Virus record (IMG/VR): IMGVR_UViG_2974506496_000001
Coordinates: 192,001 to 256,000 of that record
DNA: 64,000 nucleotides
Reading direction: 5' to 3' (one strand)
Origin: a virus
Taxonomy: Duplodnaviria; Caudoviricetes
The notes beneath the pieces are model-generated. The model was not told where the DNA came from, ran no database searches, and was given only the letters and a program-made list of their open reading frames with translations. Below are positions 6,667 to 28,998 of the stretch, one piece after another. The number at the start of each line of letters is the position of its first letter. Position 1 is the first letter of the stretch. A program made the translations under genes and the position numbers.

Positions 6667-8184
6667 ATGTTACCTACCCAAAACATTCAGTTCGAAGGCT
6701 ATGTTGAGAAAGCTGCTATCTGCCGTACACCAGCTTATCAGGACATGTACCGTCGACCGTACAGCATGAATATCAGTCAGGACACCGCATCCGTTATTGG
6801 TAACATGAGTGCCGGTGTGGATTATTCTCGTGAGCGTTTAGCGCCGATTGCCGCATCGGTCATTGCGCCACAGACTTACGTTGAATCGGTTTGTAACGTA
6901 CCAGAGGGCTGGGGTTCTGAGCGTTGTCTCTTCATTCTGAAGATCGTTCACGGTCGTCCGGGTGACCAGGGTCTGAACAAACGTGTGCAGTATCTGACCG
7001 GCTACACCAGTCACATGGGCATGATGCCAAGTCAGATGCGTGCGAATGATGTTGTTGTTGATGACAACATGCGTCTGTTCTTTAACACCAGTATGCTGTT
7101 TAACGAAACCAGCCATATCGATGGCTATGGTCGTAAGCTCGTCACCGCCATGCCGTTGATGGCAAGTCAGTTGGTAATGGGTCAGCACGGCGGGGTGCAT
7201 GGTCATAACGATCGTACGTTGCGTCCTGAAGATGTTTACTCAGCAATCAATGTTGGGCAACTGATTCAGCAGAACAACCAGTATGATCAAAGCCGTGGTA
7301 CCAATGGTCCGATTGGTCAGCTGTATGATGGTCGTACTGCTTTCCAACCTGGTCAGCCGTATAAGCTTTCTCAGCTGAATAACCTGGTGCCTTCAAACTA
7401 CCTCAGTAAAGTGCTGACCGGTGCAGCCACCGAACAGCTGACCTTAGGTGGTCAACGTGCAAACCCAGCGGATACCAGCAATCAGATCGCAACTGGCCTG
7501 AACGAAGGTTATCTGTCTAACGACCTGACCCTACAGCACATCCTGGATCGCACTGGTCTGCGTGAAAACTGCTCAATCACATTTGGTGAATTGCGTCGTA
7601 TTCTGCCGAACATTGATGCACCGGGTATTTTGACCAAAGCGGGTATGGAAGGTGTCGGTACTGGTCAGGTTGCCGGTGCAGTAGGTGGTGCTGGTTCTGA
7701 ACATCATCAGGGTTCGAACTATGAAACCGTGATTGCCAACATGCTGAACAATGTGACCACTGCACTGATGATGGATCTGATGATCGGCGAGATTCATTGT
7801 AATGGCGGTAACATGACCGTAGCCGATGTGGCGACTGGTACAATGAGCGGTCAGTTCCTGTTGAACACGCCGTACGCAACTTCCTTCGTGGACGGTCGTG
7901 ATGCGGTGGCGTTGTGTGAATCGTTTAAGCTGCGTCTGGTGCGTGAGTTCCTGTCAAGCTTTACCGGCCACAACCACGTGCCAATCGGTTTTGCAATCCA
8001 TGCAAGTCTGATGGCCGAAACGGTTATTGATGTCTCTTACAATAACCAACCGAAGATTCGCTTCGTGTTCCCGGTCTTTGCGAACGCGTCCTATACCCCG
8101 ATTATCACTGGCGATCAGAACACTCTGAACTCCATTGCCGTACACACACGTGAACTGGTCCAGCAGCTGACCAACGTCTTTTAA
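6667..8184 (+). CDS. picA: Phage-nucleus protein import factor PicA/Imp1 (phiKZ gp69-like)
   Basis: 505 aa, AGGAG RBS, directly after the gp68-like gene as in phiKZ. Called by synteny and size; no catalytic motif to confirm. Confidence 0.6.
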   Translation: MLPTQNIQFEGYVEKAAICRTPAYQDMYRRPYSMNISQDTASVIGNMSAGVDYSRERLAPIAASVIAPQTYVESVCNVPEGWGSERCLFILKIVHGRPGDQGLNKRVQYLTGYTSHMGMMPSQMRANDVVVDDNMRLFFNTSMLFNETSHIDGYGRKLVTAMPLMASQLVMGQHGGVHGHNDRTLRPEDVYSAINVGQLIQQNNQYDQSRGTNGPIGQLYDGRTAFQPGQPYKLSQLNNLVPSNYLSKVLTGAATEQLTLGGQRANPADTSNQIATGLNEGYLSNDLTLQHILDRTGLRENCSITFGELRRILPNIDAPGILTKAGMEGVGTGQVAGAVGGAGSEHHQGSNYETVIANMLNNVTTALMMDLMIGEIHCNGGNMTVADVATGTMSGQFLLNTPYATSFVDGRDAVALCESFKLRLVREFLSSFTGHNHVPIGFAIHASLMAETVIDVSYNNQPKIRFVFPVFANASYTPIITGDQNTLNSIAVHTRELVQQLTNVF

Positions 8185-8198
8185 GGAAAAGATAAACC

Positions 8199-9743
8199 AT
8201 GACAACTCCACTTATTAACTATTACACGGGCTTCCTGGAATCGACGGGCGCTGTGATTGATCAGTCCACCGGTGTGGTGAGCTATGAACGTTCCACCGGT
8301 TTAAAGCCGGTGTTAATCGATGGCAAAGAGCTGATCCTACCCATCCGTGCGTTTCAGGATAAGCCGGACTGGACGCGTTATGTACCATTCCATCCGCTGT
8401 CTGAATCGATTGCTCGTGGTGAATCGGAAGTGCTGCAGAAAGCCAAAGAGCTGATCAGTCTGAAGCTGTTCCTGAAATATGCGGAACTGTCTGAAGCGCT
8501 GCTGATGCTGGCAGTGAACTCTGAATCGCAGGCGAAGCTCACCCCTACCCAGATGAAGTTCCTGGAAGGGCTGGGTGATGCGGATGAGAAAACGGTTGAG
8601 AACTTCTCAAAGATCCTGGCGAAATCCAAAGCGACCTTTGAAGGTGGTGAGAACCGTTGTCTGGTGTCGTTGTTCCTGAAACGTGGCGGTACACTCAACG
8701 GGCAGAAGTTTGCCCGTCTGTGTGTTGTAGCGTTCCCGTACTACGAAGCGCTGTGTAAGATCGAAAACGAACCTGCGGATAAGCGCGTGGTGTTTGGTGT
8801 GCCATTGCGTGCCAAAGACATCAAAGTGCTGAAGCGTCTGCATGAAGTGATCGTACCGAACAGCGATGACGGGATCTACTCGATCGGGACTAACGTACAG
8901 ACTGCGCCGTACTGGGGTGCATTGATGATGACTTACGTCAACATCCTGAACCAGTTCAACAGCGTAATCAAACCGTTCTCGAAAGTGATCAAATCGCTGA
9001 AGGCGGTTGATACCTCGTGGGATGTGGGTGATGAGTTGCAACAGTTCCGTGCTGAGATTCCACCGATGCCGTATAATGAAGGTGCAGATTCCAGCAAACC
9101 AGCTGAAACAACCCAGCCTCTGCAGACCCAACAGCAGCCTGTTGCGACGCAGCCACAAACCATCCCACAGCCAACCGGTAATCTGGTACAGCAGCCAGCA
9201 ACCATCCAGCAGGCGCCGAGCTTTAACGGTAATCAGAACCAGTCCAGCACAGTCACCCATCCGCCAGCTCACAACGTTAAACCATCTAACGGTGGCGGTG
9301 TGAACTTCGCTGATGCGATGAACAAGTCGGGCATGGGGATGATGCCACAAATGCAGATGCCAGGGATGATGCCACAGATGTATCCTCAGCAGGGTTACCC
9401 ACAGCAGCAGATGCCAATGTATCCGCAACAGCAAATGTATCCTCAGATGCAGATGCAAATGCCGATGCAGCAGCTTCCAATGCCACCGGTCTCTCAGCCG
9501 CAGGGTCAGCAGCAATTCCCGCAGCAGATGTATTATCAAAATGGTCAGTTGCCAATGCCGCCGGTTAGCCAGCAGCAACAGCAAGGTTACCCACAGCAGG
9601 GCATGTATCCTCAGCAGCAGATGATGCAGCCTCAAATGTACCCGCAGATGCAAATGCCTGGCATGATGCCACAAATGCAGATGCCGGGTATGATGCAGCA
9701 GGGTTACCCGCAACAGCCACAGATGTTCCAGTTCGGGCGTTAA
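8199..9743 (+). CDS. phiKZ gp70-position protein: folded N-domain plus long Q/P/M-rich low-complexity C-tail
   Basis: 514 aa; the last roughly 215 residues are dominated by Q, P, M, Y and G. Confidence 0.75.
   Translation: MTTPLINYYTGFLESTGAVIDQSTGVVSYERSTGLKPVLIDGKELILPIRAFQDKPDWTRYVPFHPLSESIARGESEVLQKAKELISLKLFLKYAELSEALLMLAVNSESQAKLTPTQMKFLEGLGDADEKTVENFSKILAKSKATFEGGENRCLVSLFLKRGGTLNGQKFARLCVVAFPYYEALCKIENEPADKRVVFGVPLRAKDIKVLKRLHEVIVPNSDDGIYSIGTNVQTAPYWGALMMTYVNILNQFNSVIKPFSKVIKSLKAVDTSWDVGDELQQFRAEIPPMPYNEGADSSKPAETTQPLQTQQQPVATQPQTIPQPTGNLVQQPATIQQAPSFNGNQNQSSTVTHPPAHNVKPSNGGGVNFADAMNKSGMGMMPQMQMPGMMPQMYPQQGYPQQQMPMYPQQQMYPQMQMQMPMQQLPMPPVSQPQGQQQFPQQMYYQNGQLPMPPVSQQQQQGYPQQGMYPQQQMMQPQMYPQMQMPGMMPQMQMPGMMQQGYPQQPQMFQFGR
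9341..9730 (+). repeat. Coding imperfect repeats (MPQMQMPGMM, YPQQ, QLPMPPVSQ)
   Basis: ATGCCACAAATGCAGATGCC occurs near 9342 and 9666; QLPMPPVSQ occurs twice; YPQ recurs many times. Confidence 0.85.
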
Positions 9744-24169: not shown

Positions 24170-24640
24170 TTACTTCATACCGTCCAACTGCTTTTGAAGT
24201 TCCTTTAACTGACGGCTTGCATCCGGCGTCTCGGCGTCATGATCTCTGATCGCTTCAATAAACGACTTCCGTTTGCAATAAGGATACTTCATCCATTTAT
24301 CAAATGACAAACCAAATTTGCCCAAGATATCCGCACGCAGATATTCGAGCTCATACTTTCGATACCCAACTAACGCCAGCGAGTCTTCCTGCTCGACCTG
24401 TAAGATTAACGAGAGCGGCGAGGTTTCCACGTTATGGTCAATAATCCCAAACGTGTCATCGTAAAGCTCTGTTAATCGAATTAGTGGATACTCCCAGTTC
24501 TCGGTAAGAAACGTGGGGTTTTCTAACGCGACATCCCAGGCATCGGACCGATCACTTTCGGACAGACCGAAATCCCAATGGATTAGATGTCGGCTTGATC
24601 GAACGTCTGATTCAGTGTATTCGTCATTAGGGTAAAAAAA
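24170..24640 (-). CDS. Predicted -1 frameshift extension of the upstream chaperone (gpT/gpE'-like)
   Basis: The -1 frame is open across T-TTT-TTT (24640-24634); no good independent start; FGLSFDKWMKYPYCKRKSFIEAI resembles chaperone-extension motifs. Confidence 0.6.
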   Translation of the reverse strand, partial: FFYPNDEYTESDVRSSRHLIHWDFGLSESDRSDAWDVALENPTFLTENWEYPLIRLTELYDDTFGIIDHNVETSPLSLILQVEQEDSLALVGYRKYELEYLRADILGKFGLSFDKWMKYPYCKRKSFIEAIRDHDAETPDASRQLKELQKQLDGMK

Positions 24641-26202
24641 ACCCGTGCTACGTTCAGCGGGGTGTATGCCGGGAAGGTGTTGCTCACCAGCGGTTGACGC
24701 GCCTGGCAGTTCGGGCATTTCCAACGCGGTACTGCGACCACACCGACCGTTACCCGGTTGATGAACTTGTTCAGCTCTTCAAAGAACGGTTTACGCATAT
24801 CCGGGGTTGCACTGAATTGCTTCAGCAGCAAGGCCACGTCATCGGCCGACTCAACATAGTTGCCATCGTTGAACTCGATCTTGGTCACCCAGTGGGCGTA
24901 ACCACGCATGGAGGACAGCGCTGCCTGTTTGTTGATGTGTTGCTCACGCTGCTCACGCGTCATGCTGTCGTTGAAGCTGTCGGTGATCGCTTGTTGAATG
25001 CCGTTGATCCAGGCATAACCCGCTGCATTCTTATCTTCGAGTGATGGCACCCGCAGATAGAACTTCACATCTTTCACAGTGATGACATTGTCTTTCATCA
25101 CTTCAAAGCCGGTCTGATAGGCAACGACCTGCTCGACGGTACGGCCGCTGAAGTGAGACATGTGCGCACGCTGGGTTGGTGACAGACGATTGTTGTCAAT
25201 GATCGACAGACGAGAGACGTTAACTTTCGCTGCTTCAACATGCACACACTTCTTCGGATCGGCGGCACAGGCAGTGACCATGTGGTAGCCAGACTTAAAG
25301 CGTGCGCCCAGGTAGGCGTTAGCGATCAGATCGAGATCCTGCTCTTTGATTAACGGCAGCAGGGTTTTCTTATCGGAGACGCCGATGCTGCTGTCAGTGA
25401 CCATACCCAGCAGGAAGTCAGTCATGTGCTTACGCACCACGACATCCAGGTTGTTAAACACCAGACCGTTGGTACGACGACCGAGGATCGCTTTCTCAGC
25501 CATGATGGCGGTTTGCATATCCACAAACTCATCATCACCGGCAATCAGCAACGTAACCCAGATACCAGAATGTGGCAGCGGCAGATGGACATAGTCACCC
25601 ATGTTCATCACGCCACGAGCACGCATCACTGCCTGTGGACCGGTCAGCAGTTTAGTGCCTTCGGTACTGCGCTTCACTGGCGGGCGAGAAACACCCTGCA
25701 CTTTGTTATTGTCGAGCAGAATACCCTGCAGCCACTGCGCACCATCTTGACGAATGGTCAGGTTCAGACCAGAACGGTACGACAGGTTGGTGATGGCGTT
25801 ACTGGCCAGGGATAGCCAGATCATCGCTTTATCAGCACCGTACAGACTGACGATCTCTTTTAAGATCTTCTTGTCTTCGGTGTTGGTGTCGATCTCGTTG
25901 ATCAGCGCCGTCGCTGCATCGTAATCCTGATGCATGATAGACAGCACACCTTCCGTGCCGACATCCTCCATGGAGTTCAGCTTTTCAATGATCGGGTTCT
26001 GATAGAGCGGATCGAACGCCTGCTCAACGGCTTCAACTTCAGGTGCTTCAGCTTCGCCCTGTTGGCTGGTTTCTGCTGGCTCGGGATCGGTGCCAATAGT
26101 ACCAGTAGTCGCCGGACGGCCTGGATCAACTTCAGGAATACCAGAGTGGTTTTCTTCAACAGGATCTTGCTGTGACAGAATGGATGGGTTATCACCGGAC
26201 AT
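24583..26202 (-). CDS. Putative tail/baseplate-hub assembly chaperone (T4 gp26/gp51-like, Zn-binding)
   Basis: 539 aa; CAADPKKC and WKCPNC Cys pairs; VFF near the C-terminus at a slippery site. Confidence 0.55.
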   Translation of the reverse strand: MSGDNPSILSQQDPVEENHSGIPEVDPGRPATTGTIGTDPEPAETSQQGEAEAPEVEAVEQAFDPLYQNPIIEKLNSMEDVGTEGVLSIMHQDYDAATALINEIDTNTEDKKILKEIVSLYGADKAMIWLSLASNAITNLSYRSGLNLTIRQDGAQWLQGILLDNNKVQGVSRPPVKRSTEGTKLLTGPQAVMRARGVMNMGDYVHLPLPHSGIWVTLLIAGDDEFVDMQTAIMAEKAILGRRTNGLVFNNLDVVVRKHMTDFLLGMVTDSSIGVSDKKTLLPLIKEQDLDLIANAYLGARFKSGYHMVTACAADPKKCVHVEAAKVNVSRLSIIDNNRLSPTQRAHMSHFSGRTVEQVVAYQTGFEVMKDNVITVKDVKFYLRVPSLEDKNAAGYAWINGIQQAITDSFNDSMTREQREQHINKQAALSSMRGYAHWVTKIEFNDGNYVESADDVALLLKQFSATPDMRKPFFEELNKFINRVTVGVVAVPRWKCPNCQARQPLVSNTFPAYTPLNVARVFFTLMTNTLNQTFDQADI

Positions 26203-26219
26203 TATGCTTATCCTTACCT

Positions 26220-26687
26220 TTACTTTTTAGTGGGGTCGACCTGAACCGGGTCATTGAGTTTGCTTGCTGCGCCAGCGGCAACCGCGTTAGCATGGGCACT
26301 GTCTGACATGGTCAGAATGGCAGCACCGTGACGCTGCATCGCATCCAGCAATTTACTCTGCAGGACGATGTATTGTTCGTGCACACTGAGGAAGTCAGCG
26401 ATGGTGCTGTCATGCAAGGCATAACCGGTTTTGCCTTGATGCTGCTGCTTGATCATCGGCAGTGTTTCATCGATCTCTTTGACTACAGCCAGCGCCGCTT
26501 CGATGTGCGAGCTTAACGCAGAGGGGTTTGGCTGAAAGCGAATGATGTTGGTGTTGACGGCCATGAGACAAGTATTGCTCAGCTCATTGCGCAAATTAAT
26601 CGTATAAGTTGCCGCAGAATCCAGGTACTCCCAGAACTGATCGGGCTGATGGACCTCTGGTGCGAGAGGCGGTTCATTGGTTGACAT
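26220..26687 (-). CDS. Hypothetical helical protein
   Basis: 155 aa, AAGGA RBS on the minus strand. Confidence 0.65.
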   Translation of the reverse strand: MSTNEPPLAPEVHQPDQFWEYLDSAATYTINLRNELSNTCLMAVNTNIIRFQPNPSALSSHIEAALAVVKEIDETLPMIKQQHQGKTGYALHDSTIADFLSVHEQYIVLQSKLLDAMQRHGAAILTMSDSAHANAVAAGAASKLNDPVQVDPTKK

Positions 26688-26779: not shown

Positions 26780-27691
26780 ATGAGTGATTTTACTGACTTA
26801 ACGAAATTGAAGACCGAATTACCACAAAACATCCAAAAGATTGATGAGCAGGATGATGTGGGTGACTTCAGCGATCTTAACGACTACCTCATGACCATCA
26901 TTCCGGATGAACGGCGTGAGCGCTTGATCGCGATCTGTCAAAACTTGAGCACCCTGCAGTATCATCAAGTCCAGCCCGATGTGGATCGGTTACTAATGAT
27001 GGCCAACGACGGTGAAGCGCCTTCGGTGCTCGATGACTTGACCCGGTTGTTATTTGAACACGCTTATGACTTAACGAAAAACATGGGCTTTAACTGGGCT
27101 GATGAGATTGAGTTTGATCAGCTGTTCCTGCTCGGTGATGTAATCGAAGGTGCCATGTTGATTGATGGCATGGAAGACTACGGCGACCTCTCAGCGATCC
27201 TGGATGGGGATGACTCAGTTGAAGAGAAGGTGGTGGATATCTGGGGTCTGGTGCTCGACAAAGACATGCACCATCTGTTTGAACAGATCCAGTCCATCGA
27301 ACCGGCGGTGATCAGCGGGATCAAGCAAGTCACGACCCGACCGTATGCCGAAGACGATTATGCAGATGTGCAACGTCCACTTGAGTTTGTGGTTGAGCGG
27401 TTGGTGAAAGTCCGTGAAATGATGAAGACCGATGGCATTGCTTACCAGCACGTGGCCAAGGGTGGCGCCTTAGGCGTTGAGCTCGATTCACTGATCACGC
27501 TCTACACCCCTGAGCTGAATGCCGTGACCGACCCGATCGAACTGACCGACCTGCTGGTTGCCTTTACCCTGATCAGCAACACCCCAGATGGTTTGGTGAA
27601 ATCCACCGCATCCCGGCTGGCAGAAAAATGGATTGATGATATCGAAGTCATCAATGTGGTAGGTAAACATATCGACAGGTATCCCGTGTGA
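26780..27691 (+). CDS. Conserved acidic protein upstream of the virion RNAP subunit (phiKZ gp79 position)
   Basis: 303 aa, coupled to the next gene by a GTGA overlap. Confidence 0.65.
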   Translation: MSDFTDLTKLKTELPQNIQKIDEQDDVGDFSDLNDYLMTIIPDERRERLIAICQNLSTLQYHQVQPDVDRLLMMANDGEAPSVLDDLTRLLFEHAYDLTKNMGFNWADEIEFDQLFLLGDVIEGAMLIDGMEDYGDLSAILDGDDSVEEKVVDIWGLVLDKDMHHLFEQIQSIEPAVISGIKQVTTRPYAEDDYADVQRPLEFVVERLVKVREMMKTDGIAYQHVAKGGALGVELDSLITLYTPELNAVTDPIELTDLLVAFTLISNTPDGLVKSTASRLAEKWIDDIEVINVVGKHIDRYPV

Positions 27692-28998
27692 ATATTCGCG
27701 ACTATTTAATCATGGCCTTTCGGGCAGGGGCTTACAAGCAACGCCAGTGGGTGTTGAGTGTCATGAGTATCACCCAGACCCCGGATGGTAAATCCGTAGC
27801 AGACAGTATGATCCCGTATCAGGCACACCGCATCAACATCGGCGCGACCCTCGATTGGGCTTACTGGGACGACTTCAACAAAACCTTTGTGCCGATTGAG
27901 GGAGTGGATGTTAACTTCCCGTTGTTTCGACCCGAGGATCAATACACACTACAACCTGGGGATTTTGCCAATGTCACTGAAGAAGTTACTACTACTTTCG
28001 GCCGTATTCTGGCTAACCATTATTATTTTATCGATGTGGTCGGTGAACGTGTCCCATTTCAGAACGTAGAATTCAACCGTGGGATGTTGGAGAAGATCTA
28101 CAAGGCCCGGGTATTAGAAGACGCCCAGGACTTGCGGCGTTCTGATCCGTTCTACCTGACCGTCGATGAATTCAAACGCTCAGTGGATAATGGCTTTGCC
28201 TTGGGTGGGTTGTCGAAACTTTGTGTACCGACTGCTTGTCCGGAAACCATGTATCCGCCGAAGTTCATCATCGAGATGCGTGACCGTCTGTTTGAAGAAC
28301 ACAAGGATGAGCTCAACAACCCGGTGGTCATGGGGCGTATTCAGGATGAGCTGTTAAAGCACTATCGTGAGTTCCTGATGTCCACCCCGTCAGCCAAGTT
28401 CTTTGTGATCAAGAAGACCATCGACCAGGCCTTCAACAACATGTTCCTGACCGGTGGTATTGCGGGGGCTTTTGGTGGTAACACTGTTATTACCAACTCG
28501 CTGTACGAAGGCTGGAACCTGAAGAACTTCCCGGCGTTAGTGAATGGCTCTATCGAAGCTTCCTTTGACCGCGGTGCGGCTACAGCCGATGGCGGCGAGA
28601 AAGTGAAGATGTTGATCCGTGCCACGCAGAACATCCGTATCACCGATGATGATTGCGGCACCCAGCTCGGGGTACCGTGGGTGATTGAAGATGCCGGCAA
28701 GGCACGCTTCATTAACTCTTACATACTGGATAAGGGTGTGACGATTCTGTTAACTCCGGAGAACATTGATAAGTTCGTCGGTAAGCCGGTCATGACCCGT
28801 TCACCCAGCTTCTGTAAGAAATCCCATGGCGACTCCTGTAAGTTCTGCGTCGGTGCGCATAACGCCACCAACCCACGCGGGATGTCTTCCGGTACCTCGA
28901 AGATCGGTTCTACCCTGATGTTGTTATCGATGAAAGCGATGCATAAAGGCAGTAAGATCGATCTGATCGAGTATAACCTTGATGAGGTCTTTAACTGA
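27688..28998 (+). CDS. Virion RNA polymerase beta' fragment (phiKZ gp80-like)
   Basis: Motifs TADGGE, DDCGT, RSPSFC...SCKFCVG and trigger-loop-like SKIGSTLMLLSMKAMH. Confidence 0.85.
   Translation: MNIRDYLIMAFRAGAYKQRQWVLSVMSITQTPDGKSVADSMIPYQAHRINIGATLDWAYWDDFNKTFVPIEGVDVNFPLFRPEDQYTLQPGDFANVTEEVTTTFGRILANHYYFIDVVGERVPFQNVEFNRGMLEKIYKARVLEDAQDLRRSDPFYLTVDEFKRSVDNGFALGGLSKLCVPTACPETMYPPKFIIEMRDRLFEEHKDELNNPVVMGRIQDELLKHYREFLMSTPSAKFFVIKKTIDQAFNNMFLTGGIAGAFGGNTVITNSLYEGWNLKNFPALVNGSIEASFDRGAATADGGEKVKMLIRATQNIRITDDDCGTQLGVPWVIEDAGKARFINSYILDKGVTILLTPENIDKFVGKPVMTRSPSFCKKSHGDSCKFCVGAHNATNPRGMSSGTSKIGSTLMLLSMKAMHKGSKIDLIEYNLDEVFN

Follow-up and report, generated by a model that had tools for sequence, protein, structure and literature searches.

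Probable programmed −1 ribosomal frameshifting in a phiKZ gp77-family gene of an Erwinia jumbo phage

The window analyzed here is a 64,000-nucleotide (nt) stretch of viral DNA (Duplodnaviria, Caudoviricetes; IMG/VR record IMGVR_UViG_2974506496_000001, positions 192,001 to 256,000), which belongs to the 271-kb genome of an Agricanvirus, a jumbo phage of Erwinia, with a G+C content of 49.9% and 98–99% identity to phages MadMel, Rebecca, Desertfox and Deimos-Minion. On its minus strand lies a 539-amino-acid (aa) open reading frame (ORF) of the phiKZ gp77 family, near the end of which a homopolymeric heptamer leads into a long open −1 frame. We consider a programmed −1 ribosomal frameshift in this gene to be the best explanation of the arrangement, with a probability of about 0.8.

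Two overlapping frames in the gp77-family gene

The following features make up the locus.

24583–26202, minus strand: 0-frame ORF of the gp77 family, 539 aa, stop codon within the coordinates (by homology; phrog_4585, E 7e-189).
24634–24640, minus strand: slippery heptamer U_UUU_UUU in X_XXY_YYZ phase, on codons GTT TTT TTT (V521 F522 F523).
24583–24633, minus strand: doubly coded overlap, 0 frame TLMTNTLNQTFDQADI and stop (in the predicted C-terminal helix 518–537), −1 frame linker YPNDEYTESDVRSSRHL.
24170–24634, minus strand: −1 frame extension of 154 codons plus TAA (24170–24172), matching phrog_13274 and phrog_12109.

At the site the minus strand reads ...GCA CGG GTT TTT TTT ACC CTA..., with a run of eight T (T8) at 24641–24634. 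The 0 frame reaches its stop 17 codons past the heptamer, and the −1 frame, entered at the last T, starts YPNDEYTESDVR... The predicted products are 539 aa for the unshifted frame and 523 + 154 = 677 aa (about 76 kDa) for the fusion, whose predicted tryptic junction peptide is VFFYPNDEYTESDVR, preceded by ...NVAR. An earlier note, made from the letters of this DNA alone, had described the same layout, and its particulars hold on inspection of the sequence and coordinates: the heptamer T TTT TTT stands at 24640–24634 in the correct phase, the −1 frame is open for 154 codons to 24170, and a recount returns the 539-aa and 677-aa lengths on slippage.

Within the whole genome, the gp77-gene site is the sole in-phase T_TTT_TTY inside a real gene. 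TTT-TTY encodes just 15 of the 102 Phe-Phe pairs in ORFs of at least 120 aa, though TTT accounts for 47% of Phe codons. The 271-kb sequence contains 20 T runs and 6 A runs of length 7 or more, and slippery T runs seem to be avoided within its genes.

Homologues of the 539-aa ORF include phiKZ gp77, 201phi2-1 gp136, SPN3US gp39 and Goslar gp081. The ORF matches PHIKZ077 at E 5e-36 and 207 phage records in all by tblastn, and a HMMER search with the gp77-family body finds homologues in 1321 clusters. PhiKZ gp077 equals RAY gp267 and is the Chimalliviridae core gene cg18, listed as a 'hypothetical protein' (core-genome table, supplement of 10.1101/2023.02.24.529968). On the basis of sequence homology and a conserved neighbourhood, the 539-aa ORF is assigned to the phiKZ gp77 family and hence to cg18.

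Conservation of the site and selection on a frame without a start

Fifty-nine loci with the complete gene were compared. A first set of 24 comprises GenBank phages of ten host genera together with IMG/VR, JGI and Logan contigs, covering phages of Erwinia, Salmonella, Proteus, Pseudomonas, E. coli, Vibrio, Ralstonia, Xanthomonas, Bacillus and Halocynthia as well as metagenomes; the other 35 are IMG/VR loci retrieved with a back-translated PLWHSGIW pattern. The loci fall into 24 clusters at 50% identity and 13 at 40%. An in-phase T_TTT_TTN followed by a long −1 frame is present in 57 of the 59, so that the persistence of T run and −1 overlap in orthologs, which the earlier note had proposed as a check, is borne out. 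All 24 loci of the first set are canonical; in them the site precedes the 0-frame stop by 8–23 codons, and the −1 frame is 149–172 codons long. Of the IMG/VR set, 33 of 35 are canonical and the complete −1 frames measure 150–181 codons, while two run off the end of the locus. The two exceptions, IMG/VR loci L026 and L051, carry G_TTT_TTY (CTG TTT TTT ATG and GAG TTT TTC ATG), and their homologous −1 frame is still open. An in-frame fusion of body and extension occurs in none of the 59 loci and in none of the best 150 of the 1321 homologue clusters.

At the level of single bases, for which the statistics were drawn from 50 distinct loci, heptamer positions 1–6 are T in 50 of 50, and position 7 is T in 32, C in 17 and A in 1. 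The codon before the first Phe is variable in meaning (V 21, L 9, I 7, T 5, A 3, Y 2, S 2, F 1) and ends in T in every locus. The T run has a length of 6, 7, 8 or 9 in 6, 17, 24 and 3 loci, respectively, and Bacillus phage AgentSmith encodes Phe-Leu (TTT TTA) in place of Phe-Phe and keeps the T run. The varied preceding codon, the range of run lengths and the Phe-Leu of AgentSmith argue that it is the X_XXY_YYZ pattern that is conserved, rather than the dipeptide or the length of the run. This pattern of variation indicates that the T's of the site are selected as bases and not via the protein.

These comparisons also dispose of the reading in which a homopolymer error has split one ORF, or in which the locus is a recent pseudogene. 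Homopolymer runs are indeed error-prone in some sequencing chemistries, and the earlier note had asked for a read-level check of the run (A8 on the plus strand). In contigs of four DNA runs from four studies (one isolate-like, three metagenomes), the T run has no inserted or missing letter and its length agrees; additionally, the same frame relation recurs in 59 independently sequenced loci with no fused ORF seen, and both frames are under purifying selection, as described below. An artefact or decay is refuted by the locus comparisons, and we regard its probability as negligible. Between 24300 and 25000, the same contigs differ at 14 sites, all within 24667–24955 and each at a third codon position of the upstream ORF; no variable site falls in the 367 bases 24300–24666, which hold the overlap and the extension.

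The extension is alignable from its first residues on (tblastn, MAFFT). It opens with (Y/R/F)-P, followed by a variable linker and the blocks H(V/I)...FG, ELYDxxFGIxDH, (S/R)PLSL..xED and G(L/M)SFxxF(L/M); in the window the blocks after the linker read RHLIHxDFG, ELYDDTFGIxDH, SPLSL..QED and GLSFDxWM. Between the window and AH06, codons 18–68 of the extension, which contain no start, differ by 4, 7 and 19 bases at −1-frame positions 1, 2 and 3, with 17 synonymous versus 7 non-synonymous codon changes. In the 17 doubly coded codons only 3 of 51 bases are changed, as against 45 of 180 just upstream. These substitution patterns point to purifying selection on the extension as read in −1, and both frames of the locus are so constrained. 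The extension is as conserved as cg18, though it is absent from the core-gene list.

The first start past the site in the window is a GTG at extension codon 69, and the first ATG is extension codon 115, in agreement with the earlier note, which had seen no ATG until near the end of the extension and had located the upstream −1-frame starts only inside the first gene (TTG at 24724). Elsewhere, no ATG, GTG or TTG occurs past the site before codon 86 in AH06 and phiKZ, codon 88 in AgentSmith and codon 102 in one of the IMG/VR loci. None of these candidate starts, nor that in the window, has a Shine-Dalgarno sequence in front of it, and the −1 frame is closed 3–6 codons upstream of the site in several loci. 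Judged from the sequences, the extension is translated yet unable to initiate alone.

This bears directly on the possibility that the locus holds two separate genes, the second of them read from an internal or non-canonical start or by re-initiation, with the T run as a side effect of Phe-Phe conservation. Two genes are annotated in every GenBank record, and in some lineages a start lies 5–20 codons past the upstream stop (codon 38 in SPN3US, 23 in BONAISHI, 25 in RSL2); in 201phi2-1 a TTG coincides with the upstream stop. Set against this, conserved extension sequence precedes any start in many lineages, for instance over the first 68 codons in the window and over 85–101 in others, a −1-frame stop lies shortly upstream of the site in several loci, and the candidate starts have no Shine-Dalgarno sequence. 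Neither the invariant T at the third base of the preceding codon nor the T run kept with Phe-Leu follows from a constraint on the protein. We therefore find two independent genes very improbable.

Proposed ribosomal slippage and its main rival

Taken together, the phased heptamer, its conservation at the nucleotide level, the selected −1 frame without a start and the lack of fused or cleanly separated forms favour a frameshift. In the mechanism that we propose, most ribosomes would read GTT TTT TTT ACC in frame and stop 17 codons further on, yielding the 539-aa form that ends in a short helix. Some ribosomes, with tRNA-Phe on both TTT codons, would slip back by one base on U_UUU_UUU and continue with TAC CCT AAT..., adding a flexible linker and, behind it, some 120 residues that form a conserved helical domain. 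The resulting 677-aa form would lack the terminal helix, and the Zn-binding body would be common to both forms. We infer from the pattern of the site that the slip is ribosomal; both products are presumably needed.

One further feature near the site was considered as a stimulator.

24596–24626, minus strand: possible weak hairpin that begins 8 nt past the heptamer and lacks family-wide conservation.

In the window, the 70 nt downstream of the heptamer, which include this hairpin, have a predicted folding energy of −15.1 kcal/mol (z −1.9). Loci L028, L033, L052, L062, L064 and L011–L014 have a strong hairpin 7–11 nt after the heptamer, for example ACUCAGCG...CGCUGAGU, and other clades have none. 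A distance of 7–11 nt is the classical spacing for a frameshift stimulator.

Several points weigh against a programmed ribosomal frameshift, and those that concern its functional setting are given below with the T4 proteins. No stimulatory RNA structure is shared by the family, in which the 70 nt past the site fold on average no better than shuffled sequence (mean z −0.55; z is below −2 in 2 of 52), and an upstream Shine-Dalgarno-like element is not enriched (6 of 50 loci versus a background of 14%). Because no stimulator is shared, the efficiency of frameshifting may be low. In L026 and L051, the P-site tRNA cannot fully re-pair on G_TTT_TTY. This sequence may represent a naturally weaker or non-canonical slippery site; the arterivirus G_UUA_AAC is comparable to G_UUU_UUY in its imperfect P-site re-pairing. 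Finally, stuttering of RNA polymerase is also conceivable on a T8 run.

The last point leads to the main rival explanation, transcriptional slippage, in which a phage or host RNA polymerase adds one U on the T run and those transcripts give the 677-aa fusion. The window has T8, and 27 of the 50 distinct loci have 8 or 9 T; runs of such length cause slippage of bacterial polymerases, for example in Thermus dnaX and in insertion sequence (IS) elements. The missing conserved ribosomal stimulator fits this explanation as well, and so does the fact that the locus is transcribed by an unusual phage-encoded multisubunit polymerase. However, 6 of the 50 loci have only T6 and the G-type loci have T5–T6 after the G, which is too short for efficient stuttering by known polymerases. 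Moreover, the in-phase X_XXY_YY is invariant and the length of the run is not, whereas phase is irrelevant to a polymerase; this argument is weakened in that the conserved Phe-Phe fixes part of the phase. The existence of T6 and G-T5/T6 lineages points to the ribosome as the source of the conserved requirement, and we consider transcriptional slippage unlikely, though less so than two separate genes and conceivable for the T8 run of this window.

Predicted products and relation to known systems

AlphaFold2, run with 112 sequences, gives a confident model of the body (predicted local distance difference test score, pLDDT, 87; predicted template modelling score, pTM, 0.87), with the N-terminal 50 residues disordered. 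A C-terminal helix, 518–537, starts just before F522-F523, and the 0-frame tail after the site has a steady length, mostly 13–17 codons, across the family. From this predicted helix, the short form appears to end in a structured element. The extension model has a pLDDT of 72 overall and is confident for residues 90–154. In these models, the long form would swap the C-terminal helix for Y-P, a variable linker and a helical domain. Upstream of the site, a cysteine pair marks a candidate metal site.

24706–24717, minus strand: second cysteine pair, C496-x-x-C499 (WKCPNC), forming a putative Zn site with C312 (25267–25269) and C319 (25246–25248).

C312, C319, C496 and C499 show no variation across 9 genera and reach at least 90% conservation in the 112 sequences, and these four cysteines likely form a Zn site. 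The guess, made before any database search, that the upstream protein binds zinc thus fits four nearly invariant cysteines.

The genes around the gp77 gene are arranged in two divergent groups.

26220–26687, minus strand: phiKZ gp78 homologue, 155 aa (phrog_10945), upstream of the gp77 gene and its constant neighbour.
26780–28998, plus strand: gp79-like ORF (303 aa) and virion RNA polymerase beta' piece (436 aa, GTG start), with a 4-base overlap between them.

The gp78 homologue and the gp77 gene are probably in one operon. The gene order gp80-gp79 <-> gp78-gp77 is kept among relatives: gp80, the virion RNA polymerase beta', shares a strand with the head protein gp79, and the opposite strand carries gp78, gp77 and a small ORF. 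The divergence of the gp79-like/beta' pair from the gp78-gp77 pair extends from phiKZ as far as Halocynthia phage JM-2012. A rearrangement of the gp79/beta'/gp78/gp77 block in SPN3US and phiEaH2 has all its genes pointing in the same direction. The records of phiKZ gp77 and 201phi2-1 gp136 have no virion or mass-spectrometry note, whereas their neighbours gp79/gp80 and gp138/gp139 have one.

No description of a frameshift in the gp77 gene or family was found in the literature on jumbo phages, phiKZ, SPN3US, Chimalliviridae, phiKZ ribosome profiling or PhiPA3 gp074, and neither the gene nor the frameshift is mentioned in the Goslar virion structure paper, a 2025 review, the Grad-seq supplements, an antisense-oligomer paper or a Tn-seq preprint. 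Nor did this literature yield a proteome that contains a junction peptide of the fusion. Literature matches to 'gp77' were discarded as the numbering of other phages. A frameshift is annotated in none of 21 related public phage records. The downstream start is annotated at a different spot in nearly every GenBank record, with products of 68 to 182 aa, and the records either cut the second product at differing starts or leave 100–250 coding bases unannotated. Since the records read cut or omit the extension, and 207 records hold the gene, the predicted long product of a core gene of nucleus-forming phages is absent from proteome databases, from the sequence sets used in mass-spectrometry searches and from counts of the core genome. 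The proposed frameshift would thus add a second, larger product to an uncharacterised core gene. Additionally, the family offers recoding studies a natural series of U_UUU_UUY sites, from T6 to T9 with a G_UUU_UUY variant, that share no common stimulator.

Beyond orthologues, a Foldseek search of the body against BFVD returns T4-like models of 245–285 aa named 'baseplate hub assembly protein', 'hub subunit' or 'hub assembly chaperone', at E 7e-6 to 1e-2, a probability of about 1 and a target TM-score of 0.5–0.59, with predicted models on both sides. An ESM Atlas lead, with a score of 0.92, points to a cluster bearing PF12322. T4 gp26 (208 aa) and gp51 (249 aa) both belong to PF12322 (T4_baseplate), and NCBI uses the name 'gp26 family baseplate hub assembly chaperone'. 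By inspection, not by alignment, the two families have in common two cysteine pairs, with a CxxC near the C-terminus and then Phe-Phe (C312, C319, C496, C499, F522 and F523 in the gp77 family; C82, C84, C187, C190, F204 and F205 in the gp26 family). In T4 (7803–9229), gp26 ends right after ...EFFELL and its paralogue gp51 has 44 more residues past the equivalent ...VFKLL; the predicted short and long forms of the gp77 family part at FF. Unlike the gp77 family, which is more than twice as long as gp26 or gp51, T4 uses two genes instead of recoding and has no slippery run. A frameshift in T4 gene 26 itself was considered and rejected, its codons being TTC TTT; the start of T4 gene 25 overlaps the gene 26 stop and lies in the −1 frame.

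On the opposing side, the PF12322 hidden Markov model (HMM) has no match in the whole genome (six frames, E up to 10), and hhalign of gp77-family profiles against T4 gp26 and gp51 is not significant, with probabilities of 1.6–11%. Foldseek against the PDB matches no solved structure at E ≤ 0.001. The functional link to gp26/gp51 is drawn only between predicted folds. PDB sequence searches return spurious matches only, and a wide VIA-align search gives no Z ≥ 5 for body or extension, the helix-loop-helix rows of the extension reaching Z 4.5 at most. The extension finds only orthologous downstream ORFs of 74–182 aa in BFVD, has no significant likeness to the gp51 tail by hhalign, and its Atlas lead to Gp51_C is at chance level. 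The predicted folds are consistent with the gp77 family being a probable distant structural relative of T4 gp26/gp51, and not a member of that family. More tentatively still, and in our judgment doubtfully, one gene of the nucleus-forming jumbo phages may make the functional counterparts of both T4 hub-assembly chaperones, the short form that of gp26 and the extended form that of gp51. Their ratio would depend on a U_UUU_UUY frameshift that has no stimulator and has persisted ever since the family arose. If this were true, the tail-assembly frameshift rule would extend to a contractile-tail lineage and to a family thought to be without it, and gp26/gp51 would gain a testable mode of action.

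Recoding of this general kind is known from E. coli dnaX, where tau and gamma have a common N-terminal body and a −1 slip occurs on a homopolymeric heptamer. In dnaX the heptamer is A_AAA_AAG, slippage yields the shorter product and is strongly stimulated from both sides, by a Shine-Dalgarno-like element upstream and by a hairpin downstream; in the gp77 family, by contrast, the shifted product is the longer one and no conserved stimulator was found.

The closest layout is that of lambda G/GT and P2 E/E+E', in which an in-phase heptamer near the 3' end of a morphogenesis-type gene yields a short and a C-terminally extended product with a common N-terminal body, a layout that outlives sequence. 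The P2 slippery site, T_TTT_TTG, closely resembles that of the gp77 family. The gp77 locus differs from lambda in that it adjoins genes for a head protein and for a subunit of the virion RNA polymerase and not tube or tape-measure genes; as had been noticed at the outset, no such gene lies alongside, the neighbours being the gp78-like and gp79-like genes, the virion RNA polymerase beta' and small hypothetical genes, as they also are in phiKZ, 201phi2-1, SPN3US and Goslar. It also differs in its protein, which at 539 aa versus about 140 is about four times larger and has putative Zn binding through four cysteines. No Pfam family of any kind matches either part at E up to 0.1, and so none of those for tail assembly chaperones (Phage_TAC, gpG), Phage_tail_T or P2 GpE, nor does any NCBIfam family match. 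The HK97 chaperone 2ob9 aligns with the body at Z 3.1 and a root-mean-square deviation of 7.1 over 91 residues, among unrelated rows and within noise. The resemblance of FGLSFDKWMKYPYCKRKSFIEAI in the extension to P2 E' or gpT, which the earlier note had suggested, leaves as its only trace a chance-level Atlas lead to P2 GpE (0.82). Its label of a lambda G/GT-like chaperone pair therefore stands for the programmed −1 frameshift layout and falls for membership, by synteny, size and Pfam family. The chaperone-type function implied by that label may nevertheless be near the mark, as the predicted fold links the body to T4-type hub assembly proteins, which are also assembly factors.

A conserved −1 frameshift in the tail assembly chaperones of long-tailed phages was reportedly described by Xu et al. 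in 2004. The gp77-family protein would be a virion-assembly factor, the extension of which may recruit a further partner in the manner of the T part of lambda GT. The proposed frameshift thus also suggests that the protein acts in the assembly of the baseplate or tail, with stoichiometry controlled from within the gene as in lambda G/GT.

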